The notes beneath the pieces were generated by a model. It worked only from the letters and a program-made list of their open reading frames with translations, did no database searches and was not told the origin of the DNA. Below, one piece after another: positions 5,836 through 58,344 of a stretch of 58,344 nucleotides of DNA (the stretch's first letter is position 1; each line of letters opens with the position of its first letter). Made by a program: the position numbers and the translations under genes. Source of the DNA: Chiloscyllium plagiosum (lineage: Eukaryota). Location of the stretch: positions 102,516,849-102,575,192 of the forward strand of contig NC_057717.1 of the NCBI RefSeq assembly GCF_004010195.1, read 5' to 3'.

Positions 5836-6174
5836 TTATTGCTAGCTGCAGAATGGAACCCCAAGTCTCAGGTGTGTTGACAACGCAACTCTGCCCTCTC
5901 CAGGGCAGTTAGGAATGGGCTGGTCTGATTGGCTGTGCCCCAAATAAAATTAAAAAGAACCCAACCTTAATTTTGAAGGATGCATGTGCCGTTTTGCTTC
6001 CAAAGTGCCACAAACATTCATTCAAGGCTGGGGAGATGAGGGCTGTTGGGGTCTGTAATGAGGTGTTTGAGCAGGATTCCCATTTTTCGTGAATCACAGC
6101 AAGTTATTTGTTTTGAAGATGTGAAGGGGACCCTGCAGCTAACAAGATTAGAGGCTGCAGCAAGGGAACTGGAT

Positions 6175-6730
6175 GGTTTGATAATTGGATGTAGGTTTGC
6201 TCGCTGAGCTGAAAGGTTCAGTTTGAGATGTTTCGTTACCTTATTAGGTAACATCTTCAGTGGACCTCAGGCGAAGCAATGCTGAAAATTCCTGCTTTCT
6301 ATTTACATGTTTGGGTTTTTTTGGGTTGGTGATATCATTTCCTGTGGTGATGTTATTTCCTGTGATGAAATAACTTCCTGTTCCTTTTCTCAGGGGATGG
6401 TAGATGGGATCTAACTCGATGTGTTTGTTGATAGAGTTCTGGTTGGAATGCCATGCTTCTAGGAATTCTCGTACGTGTCTCTGTTCGGCTTGTCCTAGGA
6501 TGGATGTATTGTCCCAGTCGAAGTGGCGTCCTTCCTCATCCATATGTGAGGACACTAGTGAGAGAGGGTCATACCTTTTTGTGACTAGTTGGTGTAGATG
6601 TATCCTGGTGGCTAGTTTTCTGCCTGTTTGTCCAATGTAGTGTTTGTTGCAGTCCTTCCAAGCTATTTTGTAAATGACATTGGTTTTGCTCACTGTCTGT
6701 ATAGGGTCTTTCAAGTTCATTAGCTGCTGG
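6175..6730 (-). mobile_element. Penelope-like element, 5'-truncated: GIY-YIG endonuclease plus 3' pseudo-LTR tail
   Basis: QQLMNLKDPIQTVSKTNVIYKIAWKDCNKHYIGQTGRKLATRIHLHQ...HFDWDNTSILGQAEQRHVREFLEAWHS; the upstream part of ORF 6244-6999 runs into unrelated sequence. Confidence 0.9.
6227..6264 (-). ncRNA. Minimal hammerhead ribozyme motif, lineage D (Penelope 3' end)
   Basis: CTGAAGA-t-gttacc-taataa-ggtaac-GAAACATC; stem I decayed. Confidence 0.65.
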
Positions 6731-7828
6731 TTTGATAATTGCACAATCTCATGAAAGCAGAGGGTGAAGTGAAGTGTGAGGCTTACAAGGCAACATGCGG
6801 TCATCAAATTCAACGTGACAGCAGTAAACATCCGATGGCTGAAATAAAGAGAGAGAAGGTACACCAAGAATGATCGGAACATTGGATTTGATGAAGAGGT
6901 GCTGCCACAGAGTCCATAAATTTCTTTAAAAGGGAGTTGGGTTGCTTCATAAAGAAGATTAAAGGATTCAGGGGAGAATGGGATTAAACCAATTGGCACA
7001 GACTGAAAAATATTAGCTTCAACATAATGGCCCAGATGGTCTGTTTCAGTGTTTGAACAGTCTCTGAAGCTACATGCCCATACTTGTTCAAGTTATGAAA
7101 TAGGAAATTGCTGGTTTTCTTTCTTTCAGCACAAGTTACTGTTGAGCCTTTAAAAGCATGCACGGCAGACACGAGAAGGGACTGACTGCGTGTTAATGAT
7201 GCTTCCAGCTCAATCGCAAGTTTCAGCAATCTCACAGCCTCCAGCACAATACTCACACATGCACAGGCAGGGCAAGTGAGTGTCTCATTTCTGCTTCGCA
7301 CACAGCCCAATGAACCAAAATACTCCTCACGGGGACGTTTCTCAATCCCTTTTCCAGGGACTAGGAGCTAGCTCTGCCTGGGTCACACTGACAGCTTCTA
7401 ACGCACGAGACGCTTGAGGTTTATTCGAAGGGCCAAATGATGTGTGGGGAGTCCAAGTCACCGTCTTCTCTGAGCAGGAAGAAACCCCTTCCATCGGGGT
7501 TGTCACATTGGACAAGTCAGTTCAGTTTGCATAAAAAACGTTCCCAAAAAACACCAATCTGACAAAGGCTGGATAATCTTAGTTTGCGACTTTGATGAAA
7601 AGCTATACTAGCCAGGTCATCTGGTACACCTCGTGTGCTTCACGTTGAAATGGTGCTTTGGGTTATTTCATGGCATCCTCAGAGAGCGGTTGGGATTCAG
7701 TAACATTTCGTCTTTAAGGTTACATCCTAGGCAGTCTAACATTCAGTGCCTGAGCCTAGGATTTGTCCTCAAGTCCATGACTTGAGGATGGCACGGCGGC
7801 TCATCCTTAAGCGCTGCTGCCTCATAGC

Positions 7829-7960
7829 GGGAGAAAGTGAGGACTGCAGATGCTGGAGACCAGAGTTGAAAAATGTGGTGCTGGAAAAACACAGCAGGCC
7901 AGGCAGCATCCAAGGAGCAGGAGAGTCGATGTTTCGGGCATAAGCCCTTCTTCAGGAATT
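7829..7960 (-). mobile_element. Short Penelope-tail element with lineage A hammerhead (single arm)
   Basis: Minus strand CTGAAGA-a-gggc-ttat-gccc-GAAACATC followed by the family tail ...ctgcagtcctcactttctcc. Confidence 0.8.
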
Positions 7961-21374: not shown

Positions 21375-22690
21375 GTGAGTACTATTCGACTGAGTGTGGC
21401 ATCAAAGAGGCCCAGCTAAACTGGAATCAATGGAAATTGGGGAAAATTCTGCACTGGTTGGAATCATACCTGCCACAAAGGAAAATGGATATGTTTGTTA
21501 GAGGTCAGTCATCTCAGCTCCAGGACAACTCTGCAGAAGTTCATCAGGGTAGTGTCCTCAGATCAACCATCTTCAGCTGCTTCATCAATGATCTTCCCTC
21601 CATCATACGGTCAGATGTGGGGATATTCACTGATGATTGCACAATGCCAATCACCATTTGTGACTCCTCAGATACTGAAGCAGCCCAAGTTCAAATGTAC
21701 TAAAACCTGGACAATATCCATGGTGTGGAGGTGCCAGTGTTGGACTGGGGTGGACAAAGTCAAAAGTCACACATCACAAGGTTAAATTCCAACAGATTTA
21801 TTTAAAATCACAAATTTTCAGAGCACTGCTCCTTTATCACCCTCTCTTGACGAAGGACCAGTGCTCTGAAAGCTTGTGATTTAAAATAAATCTGTTGGGT
21901 TATAAACTGGTGTTGTGTGACTACTGACTTTGGATAATATCCAGGCTTGGGCTGACACGTGGTAAGAAACATTCACATTTTACAAATGCAAGGCAATGAC
22001 CATCTCCAACAAGAGACTATTCAACTCACTGCCCCTTGACATTCAATGGCATTACCATCACTGCATCCACCACTATCCTTGGAGTTCAAGTGATCGGCAA
22101 AACAACTGGATTCACCATATAAACACAGTGGCTGCAAAGGCAGATCAGAGGCGGGGAGTCCTGTGGGGAATAACTCACCTCCTGACCTCCAAAACACCTG
22201 TCCGCCGTCTACAAGGCACAAGTCAGGAGGGTGAGGGAATACTCCCCACTGGCCTGGATGGGTACAGCACCAACAACACTCAAGAAGCTCAACACCATCT
22301 GGGATAAAAGCAGCCCGCTTGATTGGCACCACACCCACAAGCATCCACTCCCTCCACCACCGACGCTCAGTAGCAGCAGTGTGTATCATCTACAAGATGC
22401 ACTGCAGAAAATCACCAAAGATCCTCAGGCTGCACCTTCCAAACACATGATCACTTCCATTTAGAAGGACAAGGGCAGCAGATACATGGGACCACCGCCC
22501 CCTGCAAATTCCCCTCCAAATCACTCACCATCCTGACTTGGAGATATATGGCCATTCCTTCAGTGTCGTTGGGTCAAAATCCTGGAACTTCCTCCCTAGT
22601 TGCACTGTGGCGTTCCCAAACTGCTGCAGCTCAGCACTGCCTTTGCAGGAGCAACTAGGGACAGTTGCCCACCTCCCCAGAATTAGTAAA
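21375..22690 (+). mobile_element. Second LINE family, RT C-terminal half to 3' end (interrupted at 21721-21930)
   Basis: LHWLESYLPQRKM...VHQGSVLRSTIFSCFINDLPSIIRSDVGIFTDDCT (QG and F-x-DD RT motifs). Confidence 0.9.
21721..21930. mobile_element. Lineage C fold-back element with decayed hammerheads and 13-bp TSD
   Basis: Inverted arms (cacacatcacaaggttaaattccaacagatttattt / aaataaatctgttgggttataaactggtgttgtgtg); TSD tgga(c/t)aatatcca at 21708-21720 and 21931-21943. Confidence 0.8.
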
Positions 22691-33221: not shown

Positions 33222-33794
33222 CGTTTCTGCCCGACTGTCAGTCAACAATATCGTCTGCGAACAGAAGCGCAAGGAAAGACTCTGGTGTTCCTGTCATATC
33301 TTATCCCATCCTTTGCCAACATCTTAGGGTTGCGTGGTGGGGTCCGGTGGGAAATGTCACAGGAATTTCACTCACACAGCAAGACCCCACACAAAGCGAG
33401 GTGCGATGGGAAACTCTGCAAACTCGCCATGAGCTACTTATCGTTCACTGGAGGATGTCAAGGTGGTCTCATTGCAATCTCACTCACTGCACCCCCTCAT
33501 TATTTCCGATGGACTGTCCGATGTAATCTGCTGCTGGCCCGGGACTTTAAATCTATTGAGCCAGAGGGGGAGGGACAGAGTGTGATCTCTGCAGCTGGGT
33601 GCTCAGAGAAATTATCACCACCAGGGTGGTCTTTTACAATGAGGGTTAATGTTTTGGGTCCAGCGTCCCTTCCTCAGAGCAGGCCTGGACCTGAAACGTT
33701 ACCTCTGATTTCTCTACACAGATGCTGCCAGACCTGCTGAGCTTTTCCAGCACCTTCTGTTTTTGTTTCGGATTTGCAGCATCTGTTTGTAAAT

Positions 33795-34360
33795 TTCCTC
33801 CCCGGGGCTGGTGGGTTTGTACTCAGTCGTTTCGTCACCAGGCTAGGTAACATCATCAGTGAGCCTCCGGTGAAGCGCTGCTGCTGCGTCCCACTTGCTA
33901 TTTGTCTGCCTCGGTTTGTTGGGGTGGGTGATATCATTTCCTGTTCTGTTTCTGGGAGGTTGGTAAATGGGGTCAAGATCGATGTGTTTGTTGATGAAAT
34001 TCCGGTTTGAATGCCAGGCCTTTAGGAATTCCCCTGCATGTCTTTGTTTAGCCTGTCCCAAGATGGGTGTATTGTCCCAGTCGAACTGGTGTCCTTCGTC
34101 TGTGTGTGTGGATACCATTGATAGCTGGTCACATCTTTTGGTGGCTAGTTGATGCTCATATAAGCTGGTGGCTAGTTTCCTGCCAGTTTGTCCAATGTAA
34201 TGTTGCAGTCCTTGCAGGGCATTTTGTACATGATGTTCGTTTTGCTGATTGTTGGTACAGGGTCCTTTAAATTCATCAAGAGCTGTTTGAGGGTGGTGGT
34301 AGGTTTGTGGGCTACCATGATGCCGAGGGGCTGGATCTACAGTTCTTTCAACTTGTGCAA
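33795..34360 (-). mobile_element. Penelope-like element GIY-YIG fragment plus 3' tail
   Basis: HYIGQTGRKLATSLYEHQLATKRCDQLS...QFDWDNTPILGQAKQRHAGEFLKAWHSNRNFINKHIDLDPIY. Confidence 0.9.
33822..33863 (-). ncRNA. Lineage D hammerhead motif with full stem I
   Basis: ctca-CTGATGA-t-gttacc-tagcct-ggtgac-GAAACGAC-tgag; stem I ctca/tgag; cleavage triplet mutated (GAC). Confidence 0.7.
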
Positions 34361-34517: not shown

Positions 34518-34730
34518 TGATGTGGAGGAGCCAGTGTTGGACTGGGGTGGACAAAGTTAAAACCCACACAATGCCAGGTTATAGTCCAACAGGTTTATTT
34601 GGAAGCACTAGCTTTCGGAGCACTGCTCCTTCATCAGCACCACAACCACCTGATGAAAGAGCAGTGCTCTGAAAGCTTGTGCTTCCAAAGAAACATGTTG
34701 GACTATGACCTGGTGTTGTGTGATTTTTAA
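34518..34730. mobile_element. Lineage C fold-back element with hammerhead cores on both arms (- 34609-34637; + 34650-34678)
   Basis: CTGATGA-a-ggagc-agt-gctcc-GAAAGCTA (-) and cac-CTGATGA-a-agagc-agt-gctct-GAAAGCTT-gtg (+). Confidence 0.85.
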
Positions 34731-38629: not shown

Positions 38630-39250
38630 TAGGGTGGCTCAGTGGTTAACACTGCTGCCTCCACAGCACCAGGGACAGGTGTTCAAATCCAGCCTTGGGC
38701 GACTGTCTGTGTGGAGTTTGCACATTCTCCCTCTGTCTACGTGGGTTTCCTCCGGGTGGTCTGGTTTCCTCCCACAGTCCAAAGGTTTTGTAGGTTAGGG
38801 TGGATTGGCCGTGGGAAATTGTTCATAGTGTCCAGAGGTGTGCAGGTTAGGTGGATTGGCCATGCTAAATTGTCTGTAGTGTCCAGGGATGTACAGGTTA
38901 GGTGGATTGGCCATGCTAAATTGTCTGTATTGTCCAGGGATGTACAGGTTAGGTGGATTGGCCATGCTAAATTGACTGTAGTGTCCAGGGATGTACAGGT
39001 TAGGTAGATTGGCCATGCTAAATTGGCTGTAGTGTCCAGGGATGTACAGGGTAGGTGGATTGGCCATGGAAAATTGTCTGTAATGTCCAGGGATGTGCAG
39101 ATTAGGTGGCTTGAACATGGAAAATGTAGGTTTACAGGGATATGAGTTGGGGGTGTGGTGGAGTGAGGGGGATCTGCACAGGATGATCTTCAGAGGGTCT
39201 GTCCAGATATAATCGGCTGAATGGCCTTTTTCATACTGTCAGGATTCTAT
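38630..39250 (+). mobile_element. HE1-like SINE with an internal 51-bp tandem array (about 6.5 units, 38791-39120)
   Basis: Unit caggttaggtggattggccatgctaaattgtctgtagtgtccagggatgta; gives the 17-aa repeat ORFs in the track. Confidence 0.9.
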
Positions 39251-44029: not shown

Positions 44030-44410
44030 TTGTCCTGTAGTTGTAGATTCGTCCACTGAGCCAATGTGTTTGTCTGCAGACATTTTGTCACCCCCCACCC
44101 CTCTCCCTGGGCAACATTGTCAGTGTGCCTCTGGTGAAGCATTGGTGGGCTGTCCCACCTGGTATTTATGTGTCTCTGTTTTATGGTACTCCCGGTTCTG
44201 TATCTGACTGGTTTATATGTCGGGTCCAGTTCAGTATGTTTATCACCCCGTAGTGCCCAGGGATGTGCAAGCTAGGGGTAGGAATGGCCATGGGGAATGC
44301 AGAGTTACAGGGATAGGGTGGCAGAGAGGCGGGCATTGGGTCAGGGTGGGATGCTCTTCGGAGGGTAGGCATGGACTCGATAGGCCAGACTGTCTACTTC
44401 TATGCTACTG
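44030..44410. mobile_element. Decayed Penelope 3' tail (-, about 44030-44200) and HE1 SINE 3' half (+, 44245-44410)
   Basis: gtcagtgtgcctctggtgaagc resembles 49425-49446; SINE tail. Confidence 0.55.
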
Positions 44411-47068: not shown

Positions 47069-49309
47069 CTCCCACTCCCCCCACCCCCCATTCTTTTTAA
47101 ACTCCGTTGAGTATCAATCCAGAGTCCACAAACATTCCTCATATGTTAAGTTTTTCATTCCTGGGATCATTCTCGTGAACCTCCTCTGAATACACTCCAG
47201 GGCCAGTGCATCCTTCCTGAGATATGGGGCCCAAAACTGTGCATGATACTCCAAATGTGGTCTGACCAGAGCCGAATAGAGGCCTCAGAAGTACATCCCT
47301 GCTTATATATTCTCGTCTTGTCAAAATGAATGCCAATATTGGGTTTACCTTCCTAACTATTGACTCAGCATGTCAGTTTACCTTAAGAGAATCCCAGACT
47401 AGGCCTGCCAAATCCCTTTGCATATCAGATTTCTGAATTTTCTCCCCATTTAGAAAAGAGTCCATGTCTCTATTCTTCCTATAAGATGCATGACCTCACA
47501 CCTTCCCAGATTGTACTCCATCTGACACTTCTCTGCCCACTCTCCTAACCTGTCCAAATCCTTCTGCAGCCTCCCTGCTTCCTCAATGCCAACTGTCCTT
47601 CTACCTATCTTTGTATCATCTGCAAACTTAGTCAGAATGCCCTCAGTTCCTTCATCTAGATCATCAATGTATGAAGTGAAAAGTTGTGGTCCCAACACTG
47701 AGCCTTACAGAACACCACTTGTCACCGGCTGCCATCCTGAGAAGGACCCTTTTATCCCCACTCTCTGCTTACTGCCAGACAGCCAAGCTTCTATCCAGGC
47801 TAGCACCTTGCCTCTAACACCATGGGCCCTTATCTTACTCAGTAACCTCCTGTGCGGCACTGTGTCAAAGTCCTTCTTGAAGTCCAGGTAGATTACATCC
47901 ATTGGCTCTCCTTGGTCTAACCTGCTCATTACTTCCTCAAAGAATTCTAGCAGATTTGTCAGGCATGACCTCCCCTTAATGAAACCATGTGGATCTGCTC
48001 TATTTTACCATATACTTCCAAGTCTTCAGAAATTGCATCCTTCGCAATGGGGTCCAAAATCATACCAACGACTCAGGTCAGGATAATTGGCTTGTCATTT
48101 CCCGACTTCTGCCCCTTCTTAAACGGGGGGGGGTGAGGGAGGGTTACCTTAGCAATTTTCCAGTCCTCTGGGACCCTCCCTGACTCCAGTGAATCCTGAA
48201 GGATCACCACTAACAACTCCACTATCTCTTCATATCTACCTTTGGGGTATATCTACCTTCAGGCCATTCAGTTATTCTAGCACCTTCTCCTTGGTAATGG
48301 TCACCATACTCATGTCATTTCCCCCCCCCCCCCGCCACTGATTCTCTTGAATTTTTGGGATATTAATCTTTCTTCCACTGTGAAGACTGACACAAAATAA
48401 TTATTCACTTTCTCCGCCATTCCTTTGTTCTCCACTACTATCTCTCCAGCATCATTTTCCAGCAGCCCAATGTCCTCTTTTATCTCTCTTTTACCCTTTA
48501 TATATCTAAAGAAACTCTTATGTCACTGGCGAGGTTACCCTCATATTTAATGTTCTCCCTTCTTATTTCTCTTTGTTGTTGTGCTCTGTTGGCGTTTGGA
48601 GCTGGAAAAGCACAGTAGGCCAGGCAGCATCCGAGGGGCAGGAGAATTGACAGTTCGAACATGAGCCCTTCACAGGAATCTTCATTCCTGATGTAGTGCT
48701 TATGTTCAAAAAGTTGATTCTCCTGCTCCTCAGATGCTGCCTGACTGGCTGTGCTTTTCCAGCAACACGCTCTCGACTCTGAGCTTTAGCATCTGCAGTC
48801 CCTTTATAAGCTTCCCAATCCTCTGGTTTCCCACTGCCTTTTGCCACATTACATGCCTTCTCTTTTGCTTTTATGCTATCCCTGCCTTCCCTAGGCAGCC
48901 ACGGTTGCTTCATCCTCCCTGCACCATGCTTTTTTTTCTTCGGGATGAATCTCTGCCGTGTCTCCTGAATTATTCCCAGAAACTCCTGCCATTGCTGTTC
49001 CTGCTGGGCTCCTCTCCCAGTCAATTTTACCCAGTTCCTCCCTCATGCTTCTGTAGTTGCCTTTATTCAACTGTAATTCTGTTAGCGAGTTTTGAGAAGA
49101 TTTGTAGCTCAGGTTGAGGTTCTGGATGTAGGTTTGCTCGCCGAGCTGGAAAGGTTCTGGATGTAGGTTTGCTCGCCGAGCTGGAAGGTTCGTTTTCAGA
49201 TGTTTCATCACCATACTAAGTAACTGCTGTTCCTGCTGGGCTCCTCTCCCAGTCAATTTTACCCAGTTCCTCCCTCATGCTTCTGTAGTTGCCTTTATTC
49301 AACTGTAAT

Positions 49310-50383
49310 TCTGTTAGCAAGTTTTGAGAAGATTTGTAGCTCAGGTTGAGGTTCTGGATGTAGGTTTGCTCGCCGAGCTGGAAATTTCGTTTTCAGATGT
49401 TTCATCACCATACTAAGTAACGTCATCAGTGAGCCTCTGGTGAAGCACTGGTATATGGCCCGCTTTATATTTATGTATTTAGGTTTCCTTGGGTAGGTGA
49501 TGTTATTTCCTGTGTTGGTGATGCCATTTCCTGTGTTGGTGAGGTTATTTCCTGTTCTTTTTCTAAGTGGGTGGTAAATGAGGTCCAAGTCAATGTGTTT
49601 CTTGGTAGAGTTCCGGTTGGAATGCTATGCTTCTAAGAATTTTCGTGCATGTCTCTGTTTGGCTTATCCTGGATGGATGTGTTATTCCAGTCAAAGTGGA
49701 TTCCTTCCTCATCTGCATGTAAGGATACTAGTGAAAGTGGGTCATGTCTTTTTGTGGCTAGTTGGTGTTCATGTATCCTGGTGGCTAGTTTTCTGCCTGT
49801 TTGTCCAGTGTAGTGTTTGTTACAGTTCTTGCACAGTATTTTGTAAATGACGTTCGTTTAGCTTGTTTCTCTGTGTAGAGTCTTTCAAGTTCATTAGCTG
49901 CTATTTTAGTGTGTTGGTGGGTTTGTGAGCTACCATGATGCTAAGAGGTGTGAGTAGGTCTGAGTCATTTCCAAGATGCCTTTGATTTGGGGAGAGTGGC
50001 TAGAATTTCTGGACACATTTTGTCTGCTTGTTTAGGTTTGTTGCTGAGAAATCGGTGTTCATTGGAGAATCCGTTCTTTTTGAATATGCTGTATAGGTGT
50101 TTCTCTCTTCTCTGCATAGTTCCTCTGTGCTGCAGTGTGTGGTGGCTCATTGAAATAATCTTCTAATGCACCTTTGTTTGTGGAGGTTGGGGTGATAGTT
50201 TCTGTCGTTCAGTATTTAGGCCGTATGTGTTGTTTTCCTGTAGATGCTGGATTGAAGTTCCTCATTGGCTGTTCACTCTACTGTGACATCTAGAAATGGC
50301 AGTTTGTTGTTGTTTTCCTCCTCTTCAGTGAATTTTATGCCTGTAAGGATATTGTTGATGGTCTTGAAGGTTTCATCTAATTT
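49310..50383 (-). mobile_element. Penelope-like element (RT C-terminus, linker, GIY-YIG, hammerhead tail) with 17-bp TSD
   Basis: IKFTEEEENNNKLPFLDV, KHLYSIFKKNG, NVIYKI.CKNCNKHYTGQTGRKLATRIHEHQ; hammerhead ctca-CTGATGA-c-gttact-tagtat-ggtgat-GAAACATC-tgaa; TSD ctttattc(aa/ct)ctgtaat at 49293-49309 and 50384-50400. Confidence 0.9.
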
Positions 50384-56742: not shown

Positions 56743-58344
56743 GTAACTACTCCTGTTGCTGCCTGTAGCTACTCCTGTTGCTGTCTGTAGCTATTCCTGT
56801 CGCTGTCTGTAGCTAGGAGAAAGTGAGGACTGCAGATGCTGGGGATCAGAGCTTAAAAATGTGTTGCTGGAAAAGCGCAGCAGGTCAGGCAGCATCAAAA
56901 AGAAGGAGAAGGAGAACCGACGTTTCAGGCATAAGCCCTTTATTCCTGAAGAAGGGCTTATGCCCGAAACGTCGATTCTCCTTCTCCTTTGATGCTGCCT
57001 GACCTGCTGCGCTTTTCCAGCAACACATTTTTAAGCGCTGTCTGTAGCTACTCCTGTTGCTGCCTGTAGCTACTCTTGTCGCTGCCTGTAGCTACAGACA
57101 GCAACAGGAGTAGGTACAGACAGCAACAGGAGTAGTTACAGACAGCAACAGGAGTAGCTACAGACAGGAACAGGAATAGCTACAGACGGGAACAGGAATA
57201 GCTACAGACAACAACAGGAGTATTCAAAAACAGCAACAGGAGTAGTTACAGACAGAAACAGGGGTAGTTCAGACAGCAACAGGAGTATTCAAAAACAGCA
57301 ACAGGAATAGCTACTGACAACAACAGGAGTAGTTACAGACAGCAACAGGAGTGACTACAGACAGCAACAGGAGTAGATACAAACATCTGTAGGAGTCTTT
57401 ACAGACAGCAACAAGAGTAAATGCAGACAGCAACAGGAGGAGTTACCGACAGCAACAGGAGTAGATACAGACAGCAACAGGAGTAGCTACAGAGAGCAAC
57501 AGGAGTAGCTACAGACAGCAACAGGAATAGTCACAAACAACACCAGGAGTATTTACAGACAGGAACAAGAGTAGATACAGACCGCAACAGGAGGAGTTGC
57601 AGACAGCAACAGGAGTAGCTACAGACAGTTACAGGAGTAGGTGCAGACAGCAACAGGAGTAGATAGAGACAGCAACAGGAGTATGTGCAGACAGCAACAG
57701 GAGTGGCTACAGACAGCAACAGGAGTAGTTACAGACAGCAACAGGAATAGCTACAGACAGCAAGAGGAGTGTTACAGACAGAAACAGGAGTAGCTACAGA
57801 CAGCAACAGGAGTAGTTACAGACAGCGACAGGAGTAGCTACAGAGAGCAACAGGAATAGCTACCGACAGCAATGGGTGTAGATACAGACAGGGACAGGAG
57901 TAGTTACAGACAGCAACAGGAATAGCTACAGACTGCAACAGGAGTAGCTACAGACAGCAACAGGAGTAGCTATAGAGAGCAACAGGAATAGCTACAGAGA
58001 GCAACAGGAATAGCTACAGAGAGCAACAGGAATAGCTACAGACAGCAACAGGAGTAGCTACAGACAGCAACAGGAGTAGCTACAGACAGCAACAGGAATA
58101 ATTACAGACAGCAACAGGAGTAGATACAGAGAGCAACAGGAATAGCTACAGACAGCAACAGGAATAGCTACAGATAGCAACAGGAGTAGATAGAGTCATT
58201 TACAGGAGTAGCTACAGACAGTTACAGGAGTAGTTACATACAGCGACAGGAGTAGATACAGACAGCAACGGGAGTAGATAGAGTCATTTACAGGAGTAGC
58301 TACAGACAGTTACAGGAGTAGTTACACACAGCGACAGGAGTAGG
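56743..58344. repeat. 22-bp minisatellite/satellite (gctacagacagcaacaggagta)n, inverted before 57091, running off the window end
   Basis: About 57 forward units from 57091; reverse-complement units at 56743-56815 and 57036-57091. Confidence 0.95.
56816..57035. mobile_element. Young lineage A fold-back element with intact hammerhead core (+, 56946-56973) inserted in the satellite
   Basis: Near-perfect inverted arms; CTGAAGA-a-gggc-ttat-gccc-GAAACGTC; cgctgtctgtagcta on both sides (56801-56815, 57036-57050). Confidence 0.9.

Follow-up and report, generated by a model that had tools for sequence, protein, structure and literature searches.

In a family of Penelope-like retrotransposons (PLEs) of sharks, the frame encoding the reverse transcriptase and endonuclease (RT-EN) runs through the pLTR into a hammerhead ribozyme motif and terminates there, the stop codon being the first three bases of loop II. 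This layout is real and holds across the family. The same hammerhead also carries a predicted start codon of the element. The window, that is, the whole stretch of DNA that was analysed, comprises 58,344 nucleotides of Chiloscyllium plagiosum (contig NC_057717.1) and holds four copies of the element, all on the minus strand. The shark family is a lineage-limited variant of the known PLE hammerhead; a coupling of translation to ribozyme folding is unproven and is not the simplest reading of the layout.

The window copies are shown to be dead 3' ends of a Poseidon-type PLE in a carpet-shark-type genome. The label "Poseidon-type" is suggested by the layout shared with PAc of Anolis carolinensis, a Poseidon element with a hammerhead in its pLTR (Frangieh et al. 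2024, PMC11167929, in the portions covered). The copies are truncated and match the RT-EN proteins P0160 and P0161 (tblastn), with Pfam RVT_1 and weak GIY-YIG domains; the top fold match of the P0161 shark RT-EN model is TERT (E=8e-7). Carpet sharks provide the closest named proteins to the element of copy 1. The pLTR contains the hammerhead together with the first ORF codons, the arrangement typical of EN+ PLEs, in which a further tail of 30-40 nt is optional; these elements have a single ORF with a telomerase-like RT and, C-terminal to it, a GIY-YIG endonuclease.

Copy 1 is a 540-bp 5'-truncated insertion (6188..6727, minus strand), delimited by an exact 14-bp repeat, the target-site duplication, which is found at 6174..6187 next to the element 3' end and at 6728..6741 next to the truncated 5' end. 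It consists of the end of the endonuclease, the pLTR, the hammerhead and the first 67 nt counted from the AUG, and it matches P0160 at 67% over 190 aa (tblastn). The remnant of the GIY-YIG endonuclease (6400..6727, minus strand) was assigned from Pfam and from an excess of third-position differences between copies. Its Pfam GIY-YIG match (E=0.036) is below the cut-off, as are the weak matches at E<=1 of 11 of the 12 aligned endonuclease relatives; Pfam gave no match for two whole ORFs of the window. The pLTR (6261..6399, minus strand) is open only in the endonuclease frame, where it is read as a low-complexity C-terminal extension. A 282-codon ORF at 6244-7092 was considered as the gene of the element and rejected, being element-derived only to 6727; the target-site duplication begins after this position, and the upstream part of the open frame is therefore flank DNA.

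The hammerhead of copy 1 is a minimal type-I motif (6224..6263, minus strand), identified by motif scan, pairing and folding. The core CUGAAGA occupies 6260-6254 and is followed by a bulge at 6253; stem II is formed by 6252-6247 with 6240-6235, the GAAA box lies at 6234-6231, and stem I pairs 6263-6261 with 6226-6224. The stop codon TAA of the RT-EN frame (6244..6246, minus strand) opens loop II and is directly followed by a second TAA, the only other in-frame stop between loop II and the cut. The first-pass annotation had proposed that the frame overlaps the core and stem II, with the stop as the first three bases of the loop, and that the predicted cleavage site lies 17 nt after the stop. 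The coordinates agree on both points, the cut being predicted after 6227, and when read in translation the frame ends T-E-D-V-T in copy 1 (TAA 6246-6244) and T-D-D-V-T in copy 2 (TAG 33845-33843), as had been stated.

Eleven hammerhead-like motifs were found in the window by motif scan against a mean of 0.38 (maximum 2) in 100 Markov shuffles, and 3 of the 11 belong to the Penelope family of copies 1-3. Rfam returned no hammerhead model among its 7 matches at E<=1, and the stability of the whole motif on folding is ordinary (z from -2.0 to +0.2). In the stems of the three copies, 93% of the cells are paired vs 24-42% in slid controls. On the stem covariation proposed earlier as a check, the 3 copies show one-sided changes and no compensatory double change. 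The CUGANGA core and GAAA boxes, the bulge and the G10.1-C11.1 closure are present in copies 1 and 2; the closing pair of stem II is G-U in copy 3, and the core is mutated in copy 4. Directly upstream of stem I there is a 5-bp hairpin (6264..6277 in copy 1, minus strand) that is paired in all three copies, with ensemble probabilities of 0.03, about 0.5 and about 0.9 in copies 1-3. The tetramer of helix III is non-self-complementary in all three window copies tested. Activity of copy 1 was considered and rejected: two of the three stem I pairs are lost and the tetramer of helix III is non-palindromic, and judging from these features its hammerhead is unlikely to cut.

The remaining copies are decayed in different ways. 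Copy 2, which belongs to another subfamily (33782..34330, minus strand; C3 at 33859, AUG at 33853, TAG at 33845-33843), has a broken cleavage triplet, GAC. Copy 3 (49312..50383, minus strand; C3 at 49429, TAG at 49415-49413) has ACG at the position of the AUG, a long 3' tail and frameshifts. Copy 4 (44079..44244, minus strand; C3 at 44123) has an expanded loop; its endonuclease frame continues across the core and meets CAG where the other copies have their stop. Target-site repeats were not found for copy 2, and copy 3 has only 9-bp matches. The window contains no full tandem unit of the element.

Copy 3 had been described as having the same layout as copies 1 and 2. The layout stands, but the continuity of the frame does not, the endonuclease being one base out of register: 144 nt separate its EN Tyr codon from C3, one base short, and the same spacing is 139, 103 and 91 nt in the three in-frame copies of the window (all but copy 3). 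Three of the four window copies are thus in frame from endonuclease to core, and three of four have the stop at the start of loop II, copy 4 being the exception. At least three of four in frame would arise by independent one-in-three chance in about 11% of cases, a calculation that ignores the kinship of the copies. At 80% likeness, copy 3 attracted 23,333 contigs from one species, 22,149 from a second, and 490 RNA reads; RNA run X22 contributed none. The base that is missing in copy 3 is present in the loose ends of 161 and 151 family contigs. None of the three stop positions is among the variants listed (40 of 125, which reach about 40% in some run); the stop therefore looks like the majority state, subject to reference bias. 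The G that restores the palindrome of helix III accounts for 28% and 24% of DNA depth and for 72 of 152 RNA reads, figures likewise subject to reference bias. An extra base in the short hairpin that precedes stem I is common, occurring in 134 and 125 contigs and 33 RNA reads, the agreement of the variant consensus being only about 0.6; unless compensated upstream, this variant would appear to stop at the UGA of the core, 13 nt earlier.

Gene models point to the same end of the frame. Nine of the 188 fetched proteins end exactly at the motif, corresponding to about 6 loci after isoforms and near-identical entries were merged; all nine are named Chiloscyllium punctatum or Stegostoma tigrinum, and they cover two subfamilies. 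These share the end point with tails that are identical in 14 of 47 columns, vs 71 of 96 columns in the endonuclease. Another 3 of the 188 continue past the stop position, where they have K, S or L; a single base substitution would turn any of these codons into a stop. Several shark gene models depart from the frame or end upstream of this point (P0016, P0090, P0145, P0165 and P0167), as is expected for decayed or spliced copies. Taken with the contigs and the window copies, the gene models bear out the claim that the stop in loop II is a feature of the family and not an accident of a single copy.

Some host gene models, namely P0003, P0162, P0165 and P0167 (among them WBP2-like, CUEDC2 and EYA3-like isoforms), splice into the element end. 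Two of these isoforms, P0003 and P0162, terminate at the position of the loop II stop.

The first-pass annotation overlooked an AUG in the same hammerhead. A9, the bulged U and G10.1 together spell this codon (6252..6254 in copy 1, minus strand), which precedes the stop by 8 nt, is in the +1 frame with respect to the endonuclease, and is the predicted start codon of the element ORF. The U at the bulge makes up 97.6% and 96.5% of DNA depth and 114 of 131 RNA reads. The peptide read from the AUG of copy 2 aligns to residues 1-23 of the 832-aa protein P0048, a result equalled in 3 of 2000 shuffles; in the same test copy 1 is marginal (35/2000) and copy 3 non-significant (279/2000), and a control protein gave about half. 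A homologue search with the 42-aa AUG-frame peptide returned no candidate, and its pairwise BLASTP match to P0048 is weak (E=0.39). The element 3' ends lie at +102 to +112 from the AUG in family contigs and at +67 in copy 1. A tandem unit without an untranslated spacer, in which the next start codon precedes the stop by these 8 nt, is well supported. Start codon, stop codon and scissile bond all fall within 28 nt, the cut being 25 nt after the start codon.

The layout does not extend to PLEs at large. The tail after the endonuclease has a median of 37.5 aa with a wide spread (148 of 158 homologues anchored), and 4 tails end at the motif; P0048 ends 28 residues after the endonuclease. In a metagenome collection, 28 of 84 loci have a hammerhead-like motif near the endonuclease, some of the loci being duplicates and some of the stops possibly premature. 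Three motifs were set aside for an atypical core, a long spacer or a position inside the endonuclease region (L007, L009 and L050). In 25 of the 84 loci the motif lies 70-788 nt after the stop, and none of the 25 motifs holds the stop of the frame. An AUG at A9 opens no long frame in the distant metagenome loci, and the AUG layout is therefore non-universal. The loop II stop as a general property of PLEs was rejected, relatives stopping upstream; on the homologues compared, it would be limited to a lineage. The exact motif scan of viral contigs gave no hit, and the 3 viral loci and 1 genome locus from protein-based scans are uninformative.

One of the 188 proteins is a trematode protein that ends one residue past the motif. 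The 105-residue tail of P0034 (Trichobilharzia szidati) closes with A-E-D-V-A-Q, which may reflect an independent run of the frame into a hammerhead core. A 495-bp contig in a bacterial genome record (L084) encodes the same endonuclease at 52% identity and is probably contaminating animal DNA.

The closest described system is PAc, as far as the portions of its account covered go (PMC11167929). As in the shark family, the AUG of its ORF lies at the start of stem II, which is published; the cut is 26 nt after the start codon, vs 25 in the shark family, and the element 3' end is about 111-118 nt from the AUG (RT start sites +111 to +118), close to the shark values. Both have an AT-rich target and no read ends at the cut in RNA-seq, and the PAc template has, by eye, a TATA-like run at about -51, similar to a TATA-like site of the shark element. 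PAc differs in having a 126-nt UTR between stop and AUG and a 7-nt loop II and, unlike the shark read-through, its hammerhead holds no stop in the upstream frame (by eye). The PLE hammerheads of Cervera, in the portions covered, are alike in the short helix I, the long helix II, the bulge between 9 and 10.1, the G10.1-C11.1 pair and the palindromic positions 15-16, the palindrome not being kept in the window copies. Ten of the 56 motifs in Cervera's alignment, which includes no shark, have the AUG layout by eye; two Clonorchis motifs are closest in stem II, which is nearly the same, and their loops begin with UCG, not with a stop (by eye). An overlap with the ORF end is not mentioned in the portions of that account covered. 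In Adineta vaga the pLTR of Penelope likewise holds the first ORF codons; unlike in the shark family, a C-terminus running through the pLTR is not described in the covered parts of that paper (Arkhipova et al. 2013, PMC3846280). Full-text literature searches, which included portions of PMC4209133, PMC11167929, PMC8557442, PMC3846280, bioRxiv 10.64898/2026.07.22.740005, PMC2377424, PMC10275272, PMC5972666, PMC13725137 and PMC6155905, returned no description of a PLE stop in hammerhead loop II, and shark entries of Repbase or Dfam may show one. The start half of the layout is known, and the stop half is the new addition. A loop II stop may also be shown in a paper by Lunse and colleagues, which is reportedly on hammerhead dimer cleavage.

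The extension between endonuclease and hammerhead is about 35 codons long, and each of the two other frames of the pLTR contains 3 stops. Between copies 1 and 2, third positions account for 42 of 67 differences in the endonuclease (p=8e-7) and for 12 of 29 in the tail (p=0.23); between copies 2 and 3 the figures are 39 of 74 and 11 of 27. For copies 1 and 3, third positions are not in excess in either region (endonuclease p=0.13), and the contrast of endonuclease vs tail is itself non-significant (Fisher p=0.07 and 0.37). Residues 427-463 of the P0161 model, the homologous tail, have a pLDDT under 50 where the alignment is shallow, and the extension is predicted to be disordered. The DNA underneath contains three 18-nt repeats (6330..6380, minus strand; regex and alignment) with motifs at -126, -108, -90 and -83 from the AUG (regex), which we take to be ETS-like GGAA and CRE-like. 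A decayed TATA-like site lies at 6301..6306 (minus strand; regex), -52 from the AUG; across copies it is found at -52 to -51 and encodes part of a conserved I/V-N dipeptide. The repeats and the TATA-like site may, to judge from their motifs, serve as a promoter.

Read-through over the putative promoter and the pLTR to the last stop before the cut is the best reading of these observations, and we hold it with somewhat better than even confidence. With no stop at the endonuclease-pLTR junction, the RT-EN frame continues, at the level of the family, into the pLTR for about 100 nt, crosses the hammerhead core and ends in loop II; apart from the second TAA of copy 1, no further in-frame stop precedes the cut. 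The stretch read through would be promoter-like DNA with an unconstrained peptide, and the same hammerhead would supply the AUG in the +1 frame, a step that is well supported. The stop is probably under a loose constraint: the frame must end before the scissile bond, since otherwise cleavage would leave a non-stop message, and loop II may be the last in-frame place where a stop harms neither the core nor stem II. The ribozyme itself is probably weak and, by analogy with papers on metazoan PLEs, would act as a dimer or with the element protein, and only when free of ribosomes. Against read-through stands the UCG at the loop start in Clonorchis, and the shark stop may have been selected at its place. 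The length changes in the extension (repeats longer by 18 and 21 nt, one deletion of 12 nt) are each divisible by three and leave the reading frame intact, which a dispensable tail would not require, and shuffled tails stay open in only 6% (copy 1) and 38% (copy 2) of cases; there may therefore be some selection for a frame that is open as far as the ribozyme. If the read-through reading holds, the shark element is a case of overprinting, in which promoter, ribozyme and both ends of one ORF share the same DNA and no new mechanism is involved.

The in-frame indels are also what a working protein part would leave behind. The extension could be a basic localisation or RNA-binding tail, or could carry a terminal motif, and the loop stop would simply follow from it; both subfamilies keep a basic stretch and end L-H/R-R-R-L...D/E-V-T, and in the PAc model, in the portions of the paper covered, a C-terminal helix joins the dimer interface (PMC11167929). 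Such a role is nevertheless unlikely. The tail has no third-position excess, it is predicted to be disordered (on a shallow alignment), and its shared residues coincide with DNA or RNA motifs, namely the TATA-like site, the hairpin and the core.

Termination in loop II could instead be followed by a restart at the AUG 8 nt upstream, on tandem or circular RNA. In the caliciviruses, influenza B and SART1 (PMC10275272, PMC5972666, in the portions covered) an out-of-frame AUG likewise lies a few bases from an upstream stop. These TURBS systems have start and stop within 20 nt, a range into which the out-of-frame distance of the shark family falls (<= about 20 nt), and influenza B reinitiation involves a region of about 45 nt with a UGGGA core. 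UGGGA is found at -40 in copy 2, one of the three copies scanned and at a distance like that of the influenza B motif, at a similar place in copy 4 (by eye) and at a place similar to that of copy 2 in one loose-end consensus of the family. It is not conserved, being absent from copies 1 and 3, and the loose-end consensus of the second species has C at the first position. In the known systems two different ORFs are coupled and the cis element is proven, whereas in the shark family the overlap joins successive copies of a single ORF and lies within a ribozyme and, on sequence only, there is no conserved TURBS motif. If a promoter lies directly upstream, reinitiation is unnecessary at the 5' AUG, and at the 3' copy reinitiation would yield only about 22-37 element-derived codons, which makes the proposal quite improbable.

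The coupling put forward in the first-pass annotation would require that a ribosome pauses on loop II as it terminates, opens the core and so keeps the 3' hammerhead from cleaving until it is released. Part of this stands: when the footprint of a ribosome whose A site holds the stop is masked, the probability of stem II is 0, so that stem II and the core would melt, with the cut 7 nt beyond the edge, as follows from the mask and the assumed size. Two divergent subfamilies share the position of the stop, and in PAc uncleaved RNA is the main substrate (PMC11167929, in the portions covered). A dedicated device does not follow, in view of the tail without third-position bias, the relatives that stop upstream and the variant with a stop at the core UGA (unless compensated); nor would the coupling be specific to the stop, as a ribosome that initiates at the AUG of this motif would be excluded equally. 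Neither PAc nor the metagenome PLEs have a loop II stop. According to the portions of the literature covered, the PAc ribozyme does not cleave without the element protein and is unneeded for insertion in vitro (PMC11167929), and minimal hammerheads are silent as monomers, so that no ribosome block would be needed. Transcript ends, proposed as a further check, gave no pile-up of read starts or ends at the predicted cut among the 490 poly(A) RNA reads, a weak test. Gating by the terminating ribosome is thus distinctly improbable, and the layout looks more like tight packing than like a switch between translation and cutting.

Least probable is that the shark element lacks any UTR and that dimer cleavage gives a unit-length RNA which circularises into a fully coding circle, on which ribosomes would terminate and reinitiate at the ribozyme and keep it unfolded; the regenerated ribozyme would then hold the start and, one turn later, the stop 8 nt past it, the unit length would be 1 modulo 3, and selection would act on the start-stop distance. 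The role of the hammerhead in endonuclease-bearing Penelope elements is still open according to the portions of PMC8557442 covered. Start, stop and scissile bond within so short a distance offer a compact test of the competition between translation and cleavage and of the proposed circular intermediate.

Several further observations concern the surroundings of copy 3. Flank and copy 3 tail are locally duplicated at 48993-49224, with an inner 35-nt repeat, and the duplication breaks inside the 5' strand of stem II. In RNA run X21, reads at 49285-49720 are about 5 to 1 element-sense. A loose-end consensus from this run at the element 3' end (27 reads) has a poly(A)-like run, for which internal priming is possible. 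Behind 49383 a second loose end (20 reads) has A-runs read as G on the element-sense strand, covering the GAAA box and the next A-run; this is as A-to-I hyper-editing would give, and the reads may derive from one locus.

Other elements are found elsewhere in the window. A second short hammerhead family has six copies, at 7955(-), 17078(+), 23034(-), 24132(+), 33131(+) and 56946(+), with a 4-bp stem II and an intact palindrome in 4 of 6; the shared sequence begins 3-5 nt upstream of the core. The segments 34598-34690 and 21801-21886 are palindromic head-to-head elements, the former containing two motifs (34637 minus, 34650 plus) that belong to a third hammerhead family. Rfam miRNA matches to both segments were rejected as weak look-alikes on palindromic repeats. 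A 51-nt tandem array occupies 38748-39155, and a 22-nt satellite array fills 56963-58344.
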